Assembly (NCBI GenBank): GCA_042217545.1
Contig: JBDGSM010000013.1
Coordinates: 1 to 38,033 of the forward strand
Direction of reading: 5' to 3'
DNA from: Candidatus Nanohalobium sp.
Lineage (GTDB): Archaea; Nanohalarchaeota; Nanosalinia; Nanosalinales; Nanosalinaceae
DNA length: 38,033 bases
Part shown: one piece after another, positions 12,447-31,784 of the stretch
Numbering within the stretch: the first letter of the stretch is position 1
Layout of the letters: each line of letters begins with the position of its first letter
Program-made: the position numbers and the translations under genes
The notes under the pieces: generated by a model
Database searches by the model: none
Told to the model about the DNA's origin: nothing
What the model saw: the letters and a program-made list of their open reading frames with translations, nothing else

Positions 12447-13340
12447 ATTCTAGAGAAATTCAAGGAATCAGTTAAGGATTTCTCCGAGGACGTGAAGTCC
12501 GCGGTCGCGGAGAAGGAACTGGATGAGGAGACACTGGATCCTCTTCTCGAAGAACTGAGGCTTAAACTGCTTCAAAACAATGTTTCACTGGCCGCTACGG
12601 AAGCGATAGAAGATGAACTGCGTGAAACGCTTGAAGGCCGAGAAGTAAAACGTGGCAAAGCCGAGGAAGTTGTTGAAGAAGCACTGAGGGAAGTCCTGCT
12701 CGAACTACTAGACGACAGCTTCGATCTGGCCCATGCACTGGACGAGGCCTCTGAGCCACCGACGATCTTTCTCATGGGCTTCAACGGCTCTGGAAAGACA
12801 ACGACAGCTGGAAAAATGGGCTCGATGCTTGAAGGCCTTGGAGAGGAAGTTGTTCTCGGCGCAGGAGACACTTTCCGTGCAGCATCCATCGAACAGCTCG
12901 AAGAACACGGCGAAAATATCGGTTCAAAGGTTGTAAGCCATGACTACGAATCCGACCCGGCCGCGGTCGCCTATGACGCTGTCGAACACGCTGATAACGA
13001 GGGAAAGATTGCGATAATAGATACTGCCGGCAGAAGCCATAGTGATGAAAACCTGATGGGAGAACTGGAGAAGATGATCCGTGTCAACGAACCTGACATC
13101 TCCTTCCTCGTAGTCGATGCTCTCGCAGGAAACGACGTACTTGAACAGGCAGAGGCCTACGAAGGCATGTTCGACGCCGTCATAGTTGCCAAGATGGATG
13201 TGGACGAAAACGGAGGAGCGATAATCTCCATCAGCCAGAGATCAGGAAAACCTGTTGCCTACCTCGGCACAGGACAGGACTACGGCGACATAGAGGAGTT
13301 CGACAAAGAGGAGTTTGTCGACTCCATTCTTAAGGATTAG
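12447..13340 (+). CDS. ftsY: Signal recognition particle receptor FtsY (probable ATT start at 12447)
   Basis: GFNGSGKTTT, DTFRAAS, DTAGR, AKMD; the frame stays open upstream of GTG 12492 to ATT 12447, which follows the SD GAGGGTGA. Confidence 0.93.
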   Translation: MLEKFKESVKDFSEDVKSAVAEKELDEETLDPLLEELRLKLLQNNVSLAATEAIEDELRETLEGREVKRGKAEEVVEEALREVLLELLDDSFDLAHALDEASEPPTIFLMGFNGSGKTTTAGKMGSMLEGLGEEVVLGAGDTFRAASIEQLEEHGENIGSKVVSHDYESDPAAVAYDAVEHADNEGKIAIIDTAGRSHSDENLMGELEKMIRVNEPDISFLVVDALAGNDVLEQAEAYEGMFDAVIVAKMDVDENGGAIISISQRSGKPVAYLGTGQDYGDIEEFDKEEFVDSILKD

Positions 13341-19111: not shown

Positions 19112-20410
19112 ATGTTTGACAAAATCAAGGACTCGATACAGAAGTTCTCTTCCCGAAGCGTAGCTGACAAAGAGGCAGTAGAGCAGCTCGTCAAGGACAT
19201 CCAGAGAGACCTCATCAAGGCAGACGTCGACGTAGGCCTTGTATCCGAGCTCAGTGATGAGATCAGGGAGGAAGCGCTCCAGGACGACATTCCTTCAGGC
19301 CTTACACGGAAGGAACACGTCCTTGAAATAGTTTACAACAAGTTAGAGGAACTTCTTGGAGACGAGGCAGAAGTCGAGATAGAGCCGCAAAACATCCTTC
19401 TCTGCGGACTGTACGGTGCAGGAAAGACCACTACCGCGGGAAAGTTAGCGGATTTCTACAGGAAGAGAGGCCTCAAGGTAGGAGTTATCGCGGCCGACAC
19501 TGACAGGCCTGCAGCTTTTGAACAGCTCCAGCAGGTGGCGGAGGATGCGGAAGCAAGTTTCTACGGTGAAAAAGATGCCGAGGATCCCGTAAAGGTTGTC
19601 CGTGACGGTATGGAGGCGCTCGACGATGTAGATGTAAAGATAATTGACTCAGCAGGCCGTAACTCGTTGAACGAGGACCTGAAGCAGGAGCTGGCTGATA
19701 TAGCGGAGGTCGCGCAGCCGGACAACAAGTATCTGGTTATCCCGGCGGATATAGGACAGAGCGCCAGCGATCAGGCCTCGAGCTTCGACGATGCAGTAGG
19801 CCTCAACGGCGTTATAGTTACCAAGATGGATTCCTCCGCGAAGGGAGGAGGTGCACTGGTCGCATGTGAACACTCCGGTGCTGAAGTCAAGTTCATAGGT
19901 ACGGGAGAGGAGCTCGGCGACCTTGAAGTGTATGATCCTGTCGACTTTGTTTCCGAGATGATCGGCCAGCCGGATCTCGAGTCTCTTCTTGAGAAGATCG
20001 AGGAGATGGATACTGATCCGGAGGAGCTTCTTGAAGGAGACTTCACTTTAGAGGATTTCCAGCAGCAGATGGAGCAGGTCACAGGTTCAGGAATGATGGA
20101 TGATCTCATGGAGCAGCTTCCTTTCTCCTCAAGTCAGATACCGGACAACATGGCGAACCTCCAGGAGGAAAAGATCGGGATCTACAACGTCATCATCGAC
20201 TCCATGACTCCTGAGGAGAAGAAAGATCCAGATACTATCAAGAAAGAACGTGTTGAACGAATCGCCGAAGGTTCCGGGACATCAAATAACGAGGTAAGAG
20301 AACTCTTGAAACATTACAGGCAGACAAAAAACATGGTCGACAAGTTCGACAAAGGAAGCATGAAGAGAGGCGGCGGAATGCAGGACATGATGAAGAACCT
20401 CGGCTTCTAA
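19112..20410 (+). CDS. srp54: Signal recognition particle 54 kDa protein
   Basis: GLYGAGKTTT, DTDRPAA, DSAGR, TKMDSSAKGGGAL, Met-rich M domain (IIDSMT..E, RIAEGSG). Confidence 0.96.
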   Translation: MFDKIKDSIQKFSSRSVADKEAVEQLVKDIQRDLIKADVDVGLVSELSDEIREEALQDDIPSGLTRKEHVLEIVYNKLEELLGDEAEVEIEPQNILLCGLYGAGKTTTAGKLADFYRKRGLKVGVIAADTDRPAAFEQLQQVAEDAEASFYGEKDAEDPVKVVRDGMEALDDVDVKIIDSAGRNSLNEDLKQELADIAEVAQPDNKYLVIPADIGQSASDQASSFDDAVGLNGVIVTKMDSSAKGGGALVACEHSGAEVKFIGTGEELGDLEVYDPVDFVSEMIGQPDLESLLEKIEEMDTDPEELLEGDFTLEDFQQQMEQVTGSGMMDDLMEQLPFSSSQIPDNMANLQEEKIGIYNVIIDSMTPEEKKDPDTIKKERVERIAEGSGTSNNEVRELLKHYRQTKNMVDKFDKGSMKRGGGMQDMMKNLGF

Positions 20411-27975: not shown

Positions 27976-28502
27976 CAGTATACAGGCTTGCAGAAGATAC
28001 ATACCTCGTTCTGAACTATATAGACGGCCTCGAACTTTCAGGCAAAAAAGTCCTCGATATCGGAACCGGTAACGGAGAGATAGCGTTGAAAGCAGCCGAG
28101 AAAGATGCAGAAGTCACTGCTGTAGACATCAATCCCGAGGCCCTGGAGTACGCACAGGGAAAAGCTGAGGAGAGAGGCCTTCAGGACAGGATAACATTCC
28201 TGGAGTCTGACCTGTTCGAGAAAGTGAAGGGAAAGTTCGACCTGGTGGTGTTCAATCCGCCCTATCTTCCGGGGGAGAAAGGCCTTGGAGACGAGGAGAT
28301 CTGGAGAGGTGGGAAAACAGGTTTAGAGGTCTCCCGCCGTTTTCTTGATGGGGTCGGAGACTTCCTTCTGGAAGATGGCTACGCCTTGCTTGTAGCCAGT
28401 TCTCTCTCAGGATACGGAGAACTTGTCGATGGTTACGGTCTTTCCGAGGTAGACTCTGAAGAACTCTGGTTTGAGAGGCTCTCGCTTCTGAAGTTCGGTT
28501 AG
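27972..28502 (+). CDS. HemK2/Mtq2-type protein glutamine methyltransferase
   Basis: VYRLAEDT, VLDIGTGNG, FNPPY, WFE C-terminus. Confidence 0.9.
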   Translation: MTVYRLAEDTYLVLNYIDGLELSGKKVLDIGTGNGEIALKAAEKDAEVTAVDINPEALEYAQGKAEERGLQDRITFLESDLFEKVKGKFDLVVFNPPYLPGEKGLGDEEIWRGGKTGLEVSRRFLDGVGDFLLEDGYALLVASSLSGYGELVDGYGLSEVDSEELWFERLSLLKFG

Positions 28503-28791
28503 TTTCGAGTGAAGTGACCTACTACCAATCGGAGATTGGAAGGGGCTTCCCTGTGGGCAATCTCCCAAACCTTTCCACCAAACTTGTCCCATACATCCGG
28601 TCAACAGGGAACTTACGCTTCGGACGGAACCGTCCTGCATAGGTGGCAGGGTTATTTGGTCTCCCTGACATATCAAGGCTGTTACAAGTCCTTTGTAGCC
28701 TCACGCTACCGCTACCTCCCGTCTCACCTATGAAGGTCTTGAGAGGAGGTACAGTTGTCACGTGGCATTAAGGCCTTTAATGCCTGTTGAC
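28503..28791 (-). ncRNA. Candidate ~290-nt structured non-coding RNA, family unassigned
   Basis: At least 7 stems, a 9-bp long-range pair and an 8-bp loop pseudoknot; G-U wobbles favour the minus strand; minus-strand TATA TTTTAAAG (28820-28813) places the TSS at about 28791; 3' end uncertain. Confidence 0.6.
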
Positions 28792-28833
28792 AGGAAATAA
28801 TGGTTGTAAAAACTTTAAAATATCTAATCCTTT

Positions 28834-28896
28834 AGGCTGATTCACCACCTACCTAACTCACTTCGTTCGTGAGGAAGGCGTCCTCTCAGCCCAAAC
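28834..28896 (+). ncRNA. Candidate small hairpin RNA, possibly an H/ACA-like pseudouridylation guide
   Basis: Basal stem GGCTGA/TCAGCC, 6x6 internal loop, upper stem including CTCAC/GTGAG; strand uncertain; no canonical ACA box or K-turn. Confidence 0.35.
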
Positions 28897-28934
28897 TGAT
28901 AGATTTTTTAAGGAGAGGGCTTTAATTATGCAAT

Positions 28935-31784
28935 ATGAGTGGAAGAATAGGTTTCGGTAGAATTTTGTTTGCTGTTCTCTTCTTAGCTGTTCTCGTCTCG
29001 CCGGCTGCGGCGACTTGGGACTTAAGCATTCCAAACCATGTTAACACGAACTCCGGTTCGATATTTACTTCGAACGGTAAGAAGACTGTGGTCTTCGTCA
29101 AAATCCAGACCAATCACGGCGAACCTATCCTTCCATCCGACGTTACAGATTCTTCGGAGTTCGTCTACGAGTACAATAAGAGTTCAGGCAGTTCTAAACA
29201 ACTGAAACATTACCAGGGAGCTTTCTGGTACGCAGACTTCAACGCAGATATCACTAAGCACGACATCTCCGGCGACAAGGCACAAATCCTTTTCGAGGCC
29301 CACGGAGACAGGAGCACAACTGACGGGGTCGACTCAGGTGGCTGGCAGAACACGACAGCAGCTCTCCAGGTCAACAACTACACAGTAAACATAACAGACG
29401 GAATCGAATCACCTATCAACCCGGGCGACAACGTTAACATGACGGTAAACGTTTCTGACCGGGATGGAGTCAACGCACCAGGGGTACAGGACGTCTACGC
29501 ATACTTCAGAAACAGTACAAACGACCTAATCGGCAAAAAAACATTCAGCTACAACTCGACAACAGGCCTTTACAACGTAAGCATAACACCACCCCTAACA
29601 CACGACGAAAAATACCTGATGAGGGTCATCGCAAAGAACAAGACGAGCAAAACATACGGATCAGTCTCCAGATGGGTTACAACCACGAAGGATATCCACG
29701 GAAATATAGAGAACTTCACAGGCCTTAAAGGATGCGACAGACTTCAGGGACAGCCAGTAGCCGCCAACTGCGAACCAGGTGGAAGCATGGACCTCAGCTT
29801 CAACGTTACAGGAGTCCCGGTGGACAACGTAACACTCAGCACCTACAAAGTAAACAGGTCATCCAGTGAACAGCAGCAGATAATGAACAAAACCCTGGGT
29901 AAAAGTGAAGGCCTCTACCAGGGCCAGGTCTCAGTTCCCGGGATAAACACCTCGGCGTTCGAAAACAAGGTAATAGTTAAGATAGAGATGAACAAGGGAG
30001 ACCGCTCAAAGACCATCCATAAAACAATCTCCTACAAGGCCCTCAAACTTGTCCATACAGGAGGCAGGACGACCTCCCAGGGACAGGACTACGATCTAGG
30101 AATCCAGGCCTTGAGACCTATCTCGCTTTCACCGTACGGCGCTTCAGCACTTGACTCGCTGAAGGTGAACGTTACAACTCCTTCAGGAAACCTTTACAGG
30201 AACTACTCGAAATCAGACCTGAGCTTTGATGACGGAAAGATGGTGTTCGACAGGAAGGTCAACATAGGACAGAACGCCGAGTCCGGAGGATGGGACGTCA
30301 GCGCAAAAGGTTCCATCTACGCCCAGAGCGATTCACTGAACTCCGGCTTCTCGGTCGCATCTTCCGACGCATCGATCCAGGTAAACGACACAGAGTACTT
30401 CATGGACGAACGTGGAGAGAAAGACGTCACCCTGGACGTAAAGAACCTGATAACGAGCAATATCACCATCAAGACAAACGTTTCCTCCCAGCTTAGAGGA
30501 ATACTAAACATCAGCGAAGACGGACGGTTCAACGTCTCAGCAGGAGCCAAAAAATCTGTTCCTGTAACCATTCAGAAGACAGATCTCGCGGATAACGTCC
30601 ATGGACAGGTAAACTTCACGGATGTAGACACAGGTTACCAGACACAGGCCTCTGCACGTATCCAGACGCTAGGATGCATGTTCAGCAACGGAAGCCTCTG
30701 CAGCACCACGGGCAAATGGATCAACATCTCCGCCGACTCAAGAGATACGAAACAGGGACATATCGAGATCTACTACACAGCAGGAGAAGGCAAAGCCACT
30801 AACGTAACAGTTAGCAAGCAAGGCAGCATTGCCAGCTTCATAGACATCAACAAGACAAAATATGAAGTAAAAGACGGCCTGACAATCGACCTGAACTACA
30901 CTCCAGTACAGAGAGGAAACTTCACAGGCAACATCATTCTGGAAGCAGACAACGGATCTGTCCTCAGGTACAACACGTCTCTTGAAGCAAACGTCACGGC
31001 ACAGGGAGAAATACTTTCGACAAATACTTCAACAGTCCAGTTAGGAACCCTGCCGGAAGGATCCTCCGAAAACATCGCATTACAGATCCAGAACACAGGA
31101 AGCCTTGATGTAAACAACCTGATCGCGAAATCACAGAGAATGGACGCAGGCCTCGACAACGGACCTGTAGACCTGCCAGCCGGAAGCTCAAAGACCGTGA
31201 CTGTAAGTTTAAGCAACATAAACTCCATGAGCTCCATAATCTTTACAGGAAGTAAAGGACAGGGATCCAACGCATCAACAACAGTACAGGCCCAAGGGAC
31301 AGTAGTCCAGAACTACTCCGCAAAAGCCGGAGACCTGAGAGGCAGGATCAGAGGCCTTCGACCAGTCTCCAAGTCCAACCTTTCCGACACACTCCAGAAA
31401 GTCGACGGAATGATCGGAGCGATAAAGGACCAGTGGTCAAACGAAAAGTACACAGAGGCCAGGAACACATACAGCCAGGCACAGGTACTCCTTGACTACG
31501 TCTCCAACCACAAGGGAACAGACACCAGCGGAAACACCGGAAACACCGGAAGTCCGGGGGACACAGGAAAGAAGGGAAGCCAGGGAGGAGGCAACAACCC
31601 ACCTGGAAGCGGAGGAGACCAGAACCAGGGAGGACAGCAGCAGAAGAAAGAAAGCGGAGGAGGCCTTCCAATCCTGCCGATCGTAGCTGTCGTGCTCGTC
31701 CTCGTCATAGTAGGAGCGGTCGTATACGAAAGCTACATACCTGAAGAAGGAGATCCACTCTACGGACTCCTCGGAGAGGAATAA
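28935..31784 (+). CDS. Large membrane-anchored cell-surface glycoprotein (multiple Ig-like folds)
   Basis: Signal peptide (SPAAA), many N-x-S/T sequons, beta-rich body, Gly/Gln linker, C-terminal TM plus short acidic tail. Confidence 0.8.
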   Translation: MSGRIGFGRILFAVLFLAVLVSPAAATWDLSIPNHVNTNSGSIFTSNGKKTVVFVKIQTNHGEPILPSDVTDSSEFVYEYNKSSGSSKQLKHYQGAFWYADFNADITKHDISGDKAQILFEAHGDRSTTDGVDSGGWQNTTAALQVNNYTVNITDGIESPINPGDNVNMTVNVSDRDGVNAPGVQDVYAYFRNSTNDLIGKKTFSYNSTTGLYNVSITPPLTHDEKYLMRVIAKNKTSKTYGSVSRWVTTTKDIHGNIENFTGLKGCDRLQGQPVAANCEPGGSMDLSFNVTGVPVDNVTLSTYKVNRSSSEQQQIMNKTLGKSEGLYQGQVSVPGINTSAFENKVIVKIEMNKGDRSKTIHKTISYKALKLVHTGGRTTSQGQDYDLGIQALRPISLSPYGASALDSLKVNVTTPSGNLYRNYSKSDLSFDDGKMVFDRKVNIGQNAESGGWDVSAKGSIYAQSDSLNSGFSVASSDASIQVNDTEYFMDERGEKDVTLDVKNLITSNITIKTNVSSQLRGILNISEDGRFNVSAGAKKSVPVTIQKTDLADNVHGQVNFTDVDTGYQTQASARIQTLGCMFSNGSLCSTTGKWINISADSRDTKQGHIEIYYTAGEGKATNVTVSKQGSIASFIDINKTKYEVKDGLTIDLNYTPVQRGNFTGNIILEADNGSVLRYNTSLEANVTAQGEILSTNTSTVQLGTLPEGSSENIALQIQNTGSLDVNNLIAKSQRMDAGLDNGPVDLPAGSSKTVTVSLSNINSMSSIIFTGSKGQGSNASTTVQAQGTVVQNYSAKAGDLRGRIRGLRPVSKSNLSDTLQKVDGMIGAIKDQWSNEKYTEARNTYSQAQVLLDYVSNHKGTDTSGNTGNTGSPGDTGKKGSQGGGNNPPGSGGDQNQGGQQQKKESGGGLPILPIVAVVLVLVIVGAVVYESYIPEEGDPLYGLLGEE

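Follow-up and report, generated by a model that had tools for sequence, protein, structure and literature searches.

A protein-less IS200/IS605-type insertion downstream of hemK in a nanohaloarchaeon and its probable cargo, an enlarged stand-alone TnpB omegaRNA

In a stretch of 38,033 nucleotides from Candidatus Nanohalobium sp., hereafter the window, positions 28509-28898 are a lineage-specific insertion and not a host housekeeping RNA. The insertion is almost certainly a mobile element of the kind termed PATE, the cargo of which quite probably derives from an omegaRNA. Taken as a whole, the locus is likely a PATE carrying an enlarged stand-alone omegaRNA of a TnpB nuclease. An earlier note on this DNA had described positions 28503-28791 as a structured RNA with its own promoter, taken to be a novel ribozyme or RNP scaffold or else an extremely diverged RNase P or SRP RNA. 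A structured, probably promoter-driven minus-strand RNA without an Rfam family is indeed retained here, yet the role of host ribozyme or scaffold is not, the locus being a lineage-specific insertion. The feature extends over 28509-28898 and is bounded by transposon ends, which the note had missed. Its parts, in the direction of the minus strand, are as follows:

28509..28898, minus strand: the whole element, 390 bp, protein-less and of IS200/IS605 type (PATE), delimited by an exact junction with the empty site L001
28899..28902, minus strand: target tetranucleotide CTAT (TAM side) in host DNA just outside the left end, kept in the empty site and predicted from the left-end guide
28834..28898, minus strand: left end with a 4-nt DNA guide (28884-28881) and an imperfect subterminal hairpin, the TnpA site, from alignment and folding
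28813..28820, minus strand: TATA-like box, a putative promoter placed like that of the leaderless tnp gene in coding elements
28757..28791, minus strand: accessory 5' hairpin where the RNA is predicted to begin (28784-77/28771-64 paired with probability 0.98)
28708..28755, minus strand: long hairpin H1 (probability 0.93, 7-bp core), the top of which carries strand 28732-28725 of the pseudoknot proposed earlier
28695..28709, minus strand: pseudoknot ("nexus") hairpin with a 4-bp stem and a 7-nt loop, loop bases 28704-28699 being complementary to the six terminal bases 28514-28509
28620..28694, minus strand: middle domain, in which the hairpins 28667-63/28651-47 and 28635-31/28626-22 are present, together with the partner strand 28645-28638 of the pseudoknot proposed earlier
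28547..28611, minus strand: 3' accessory module with closing helix 28611-04/28554-47 and inner helix 28601-596/28582-577, aligning with L007, L024 and L113
28509..28549, minus strand: right end with DNA guide, subterminal hairpin and terminal TTCAC, doubling as the 3' end of the RNA scaffold, from an alignment of 12 ends and matched by model R1
28489..28508, minus strand: predicted guide in the host flank, antisense to the last hemK codons and presumably used as such

The insertion is seen by comparison with the empty site L001, where the hemK stop runs straight into the promoter of the next gene, while the window has exactly 390 bp extra at this joint. The element thus sits between the stop codon of hemK, which codes for a HemK2/MTQ2 methyltransferase, and the promoter of the downstream gene, which is left intact just outside the insertion; a target duplication is absent. 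Of 48 hemK matches in 50 family genomes, the best 30 were read: the element is present in the window's own genome and absent from all 29 other loci, which may overlap named records including L001 and are not counted as independent of those. The next long ORF follows 25-45 nt after the hemK stop in each of the 28 loci with a full flank, and a homologue of the same downstream gene is found at 25 of the 29 other loci. Such a distribution is not that of a housekeeping RNA. DNA contigs of the sequencing runs contain no empty-site joint, which is no proof either way as contigs drop rare variants. In the window, the downstream gene (28935-31784) codes for a 949-aa secreted, membrane-anchored protein without an NCBIfam family, and its synteny with hemK extends across the family. 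The element itself harbours no credible ORF: its 12 stop-to-stop frames span 33-97 aa and bear no likeness to TnpA or TnpB on reading. An 89-aa minus-strand ORF (28676-28407) was dismissed as spurious.

Both ends of the insertion belong to a family of related ends. The left end aligns with five others, including that of L057/L099, an autonomous element with an IS200/IS605 transposase and tnpB, and folds as a hairpin (z -1.64). The right end aligns with 11 others, some of which follow tnpB genes, and its stem carries one mismatch relative to the sister elements. This minus-strand 3' end recurs on other contigs of the same genome and in relatives: a model built from 12 right ends, which match by construction, yields 34 matches, spread over 9 of 70 phylum genomes, with 10 in the window's own genome.

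The target likewise conforms to the ends. With the exact guide-target pairing register taken from IS608, the window guide AGGA predicts CTNT, and CTAT occurs once in the 16 bases examined, exactly at the junction that the empty site fixes independently. Such base-pairing with a left-end guide is how IS605-type elements pick their target (PMC10055086). The guide-to-target rule holds for 15 of 17 left ends, missing L028 and the fused, terminal-only L109, and is to be read with the proviso that it specifies three bases and that T-rich targets can match by chance. Elements with A at guide position 2 follow TTAT, and hence guide and target changed together. The terminal-only copy L109 (G007:C27:3238-3288, ~50 bp) has a left tip nearly equal to that of the window element and also follows CTAT. 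Given its ends, its guide-predicted target 3' of which it sits, its insertion without duplication and its lack of an ORF, the window element qualifies, with near certainty, as a PATE as defined for Haloquadratum (PMC3119063).

The stretch is unusually rich in internal complementarity. All ten helices listed in the earlier note are perfect reverse complements, and the dense packing that it described is borne out: region 28503-28791 contains five perfect stems of at least 8 bp, whereas dinucleotide shuffles average 0.58 and none of 300 reaches five. The minus-strand fold has a z score of -2.40 (2 of 200 shuffles as good), the plus-strand fold one of -1.62 (13 of 200). Single long-range matches are unremarkable, since 15% of shuffles also have a 9-bp stem and 34% a long-range one of at least 8 bp. 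The TATA-like box (28820-28813) begins 29 nt upstream of G28791, as had been noted. In coding elements a TATA box after the left end drives the leaderless tnp gene, and L099, L110, L119 and L120 all have a box at the corresponding position behind their left end. Its position as in coding elements, pointing at 28791, argues for an RNA that would be read from the transposon's promoter at ~28791 through the right end into the hemK-antisense flank. Sigma-70 promoter scans are inapplicable to archaea.

A feature that links this predicted RNA to omegaRNAs is a potential pseudoknot between a stem-loop and the 3' end of the scaffold, a conserved trait of that RNA class (PMC10097598; bioRxiv 10.1101/2023.11.20.567912). 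Here, loop GTGAGG faces the terminal CTTCAC; the element contains exactly one such hairpin, and only 0.36% of 5000 shuffles do likewise (p 0.0036). In all six type-C omegaRNAs, a 4-bp stem bears a 7-nt loop, the last six bases of which complement the last six of the element, the two strands changing together; this covariation comes from relatives and not from the window core. The pseudoknot best supported by relatives, which would pair 28704-28699 with 28514-28509, differs from the one proposed in the earlier note. By the geometry of the element, the scaffold ends at the right end and is followed by a guide derived from the flank, both RNA ends being predicted. The 20-nt flank guide agrees with the empty site L001, following CTAT, in 18 of its 20 bases; elsewhere in the window's own assembly, CTAT is nowhere followed by a near match.

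The core of the RNA is more divergent. A covariance model of type-C omegaRNAs has its best local match at 28756-28659 with a weak score of 7.3 bits (rank 4 of 11 and E 2.2 across the window; E 0.025 when 441 nt are searched), in which the first two helices are in register and H1 falls on the H1 of type C. The type-C HMM does not match the window core, models R2 and R3 give no significant match there (R3 none at all), and the best of 47 pairwise alignments of the core with collected omegaRNAs reaches an insignificant p of 0.015. The 170-nt core thus has no detectable homology to any collected omegaRNA, nor was a significant homologue of the middle domain found in searches of the collected omegaRNAs and with core DNA. 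Among the tnpB 3' ends read, no gene ends in a core of the window type. Core DNA gives five short matches outside its own genome among 401 genomes, and a pattern scan of metagenome contigs gives 20, all judged to be chance on reading. Viral contigs contain no match with two patterns and no relative of the 429-aa TnpB, and plasmids and phages yield no match. One 220-nt contig from a lake (a single run) matches 28623-28789 with 19 substitutions and 9 gaps, and therefore the core has at least one diverged relative. Computed without pseudoknot energy, the omegaRNA-like fold lies 5 kcal/mol above the free minimum (-93.0 versus -98.1 kcal/mol unconstrained). The assembly of the host, which is 92% complete, contains one tnpB, of another omegaRNA type, and neither a Y1 tnpA nor a cognate TnpB or TnpA was found there; Y1 matches occur in 4 of 70 genomes of the phylum. 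It is doubtful that the RNA can still guide a TnpB in this host.

Related protein-less elements provide the context for this reading. Nine complete sisters were read (L007, L008, L012, L014, L020, L024, L111, L113 and L117), and the core of each looks like the 3' RNA of some tnpB gene of the phylum, a likeness judged by reading except in type C. In type C, an alignment of three solo copies with three tnpB-linked ones has 97% of its cells paired and double changes in 8 pairs; the solo RNA aligns with the 3' end of the gene for the 429-aa TnpB. Two solo copies are also detected, at 20-24 bits, by a model trained on 10 tnpB-linked RNAs from other genomes. In Rfam searches, six sister loci yielded only a 5S rRNA.

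Several side observations concern the spread and build of these elements. The window's own genome holds a second complete protein-less element, L012 (G000:C26:19937-20230), with related ends, the target TTAA and a core like a classical type-A omegaRNA, upstream of a gene that, judged by eye, probably codes for leucyl-tRNA synthetase. Further right ends lie at contig ends of G000:C53, C82, C59 and C21, the last of which ends in a tnpB 3' remnant, and their location at contig breaks suggests collapsed repeats. One and the same short copy, consisting of ends only, is found on both G000:C12 and C41. Additional 5' domains are a further gain of solo elements (L007, L024, L113, L117, L111 and L008), and in type-C solos the loop of a 5' hairpin complements the beginning of the omegaRNA core. 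L024 and L117 bear stacked palindromic inserts like those of haloarchaeal PATEs (PMC3119063).

The 3' module is shared with protein-less copies. Across four sequences, 90.7% of cells in its helices are paired, 7 of 14 pairs show double changes and none of 500 shuffles matches this, each double change being seen once and the structure being drawn from the same sequences; in slid registers, pairing drops to 31-48%. Among the 3' ends read by eye, the module is seen only in protein-less copies. Other inserted 3' modules, with a similar closing stem before the right end, occur in L014, L013, G000:C53, G000:C59 and L111, where they accompany type-A and type-E cores in protein-less copies.

The module bears on the 5' long-range stem (28791-28783/28608-28600), which the earlier note had taken to close the RNA. 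This stem has a pairing probability of 0.0 and overlaps the covarying sister helix; forcing it costs ~9 kcal/mol (-89.5 versus -93.0 kcal/mol for the omegaRNA-like fold without pseudoknot energy and -98.1 kcal/mol unconstrained). Since it uses bases inside the covarying module, which is kept in sisters with other 5' ends, the stem is contradicted. In the plain energy model, the closing helix of the module has a pairing probability of only 0.01. The same model favours the alternative helix 28565-58/28538-31 (0.83), which would melt the right-end hairpin, and therefore allows for misfolding or a second state. As a speculative and rather improbable extension, the accessory module may be exchanged between unrelated omegaRNA cores and keep an orphan guide folded or stable without TnpB mRNA, while a second pseudoknot and the alternative fold of the present copy would make the guide switchable or fit an unknown CTAT-type RNA-guided protein.

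Based on these features, we propose that a non-autonomous IS200/IS605 element lost tnpA and tnpB and would have been inserted as single-stranded DNA by a Y1 TnpA acting in trans, a putative partner, with the left-end guide pairing with CTAT. An RNA initiated at ~28791 by the promoter of the transposon itself would extend past the right end into flanking DNA and would represent a stand-alone TnpB omegaRNA. Loop 28704-28699 would pair with the last six bases of the element to make the conserved pseudoknot, and the next 16-20 nt of host flank would act as guide. A compatible TnpB might then cleave an unoccupied site, whereupon repair templated by the filled copy would retain the element; the scaffold may have been enlarged by the 5' hairpin, the middle domain and the 3' module common to other protein-less elements. 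In the published model, TnpB cutting of empty alleles favours retention, and PATEs often encode omegaRNAs acting in trans (PMC10055086); stand-alone omegaRNAs are likewise used in trans (PMC10691335).

A less favourable view of the same element, which we regard as possible yet unlikely, is that of a PATE with a decayed omegaRNA core and small palindromic inserts, where structure reflects ancestry and insertion bias without any present function. The missing cognate TnpB and TnpA in the assembly and the mismatch in the right-end stem relative to the sisters would fit decay, as would the obvious palindromic inserts in L024 and L117, which recall haloarchaeal PATEs (PMC3119063); the spacing of the promoter, the complement of the pseudoknot and the helices of the module are nevertheless all intact, and one run contains a diverged copy of the core (28623-28789). 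Alternatively, the PATE may carry some other undescribed non-coding cargo, e.g., a ribozyme or a two-state switch, before an ordinary right end, in line with the mutually exclusive folds of the earlier note. This is improbable. The core matches no model, and the helices 28791-83/28608-00 and 28565-58/28538-31 are mutually compatible and would together open both the right-end hairpin and the module. The second of these helices has a probability of 0.83, and an extra 8-bp long-range complement exists as well. The 5' long-range helix, however, has a probability of 0.0 and arises in 15% of shuffles, its 3' strand belongs to a module conserved in elements with differing 5' ends, and Rfam gives no ribozyme or intron match at E values up to 10.

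Known RNA families offer little else. At gathering score, Rfam has no match in the whole window, and for the region the matches at E up to 10 are three chance lncRNA hits without any ribozyme, intron or HEARO; an ARAGORN run on the window returned none. An IscB/IsrB-type (HEARO-like) omegaRNA with a 5' guide is very improbable: the RNA begins with a hairpin closed near its first bases, which resembles that of HEARO-like omegaRNAs, yet no iscB lies downstream, no HEARO match appears at E up to 10, and the RNA ends at the forward right end, like TnpB RNAs. The RRXRR domain was found in none of 70 genomes, but a control likewise had no match anywhere, which makes this survey uninformative. The suggestion of an extremely diverged RNase P or SRP RNA is hardly tenable, even though no RNase P RNA was found in the genome (best E 7.6) and the window codes for two SRP54-domain GTPases (12492-13340 and 19112-20410; FtsY and SRP54 by size). 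The insertion is missing at 29 of 29 other loci. Archaeal SRP RNA (RF01857) has no match in the region, and the canonical SRP RNA of the genome lies on another contig (G000:C61:1397-1669, 127 bits), which refutes the SRP part. The candidate archaeal RNase P RNA (RF00373) was rejected as well, with no match, absence from the relatives' loci and protein partners not found.

The lack of RNase P RNA has an explanation for which the locus is not needed: a PIN_5/HARP protein is present (G000:C17:44429-45031, 227 bits), and Rpp29, Pop5 and Rpp30 have no match in the 92% complete genome. Of 70 phylum genomes, 44 have Rpp29; it was found in neither of the two other genomes of the genus. Given HARP without RNase P RNA or proteins, the lineage may be a HARP-only archaeon. 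According to a 2019 report, HARP occurs in no DPANN genome and never without the RNP proteins in archaea (PMC6380272).

The reading as a PATE with a stand-alone TnpB omegaRNA removes a candidate for a new housekeeping ribozyme and provides, for DPANN archaea, a clear case of a transposon with a stand-alone guide RNA, in which a target change is mirrored in the DNA guide. The core also hints at a clade of TnpB for which no coding copy turned up. If the module stabilises orphan omegaRNAs, it would help explain the persistence of stand-alone guides and could inform the design of halophilic TnpB scaffolds. Literature searches, mostly outside subscription journals, yielded no account of such elements in nanohaloarchaea and none of extra omegaRNA domains.

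Among known systems, the PATEs of Haloquadratum walsbyi share with the window element the lack of terminal inverted repeats, near-terminal IS605-like palindromes, the absence of target duplication, a length too short for a transposase, a conserved terminal oligonucleotide and strain-specific insertion; the window element, by contrast, resides in a nanohaloarchaeon and has an internal promoter and a predicted structured RNA of 283 nt, two features that are not part of the Haloquadratum description consulted (PMC3119063). IStrons share an IS605-type RNA 3' end able to hold competing folds (bioRxiv 10.1101/2023.11.20.567912), whereas the window element has no detected group I core and is intergenic and antisense to its neighbours, so that there is nothing from which it could be spliced. 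Stand-alone omegaRNAs likewise stem from protein-less IS200/IS605 derivatives, end at the right end and use a flank guide in trans (PMC10055086, PMC10691335). Compared to these, the window scaffold is longer than the 116-nt ISDra2 core (PMC10097598) and than the tnpB-linked scaffolds of 130-180 nt measured here, has an extra 5' hairpin, middle domain and 3' module, and contains a core that matches no model built here. Similar in build is the type-C omegaRNA of the 429-aa TnpB (L093, L094 and L101), with a similar left end and a long hairpin followed by a 4-bp/7-nt pseudoknot hairpin, and the type-C solo copies (L007, L024, L113 and L117) share the 3' module and the right-end tail; yet the window core is not significantly similar to type C, and its target is CTAT rather than TTAT, a difference mirrored in the guide of the left end. 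The type of element is already known, and this form of the RNA is uncatalogued.
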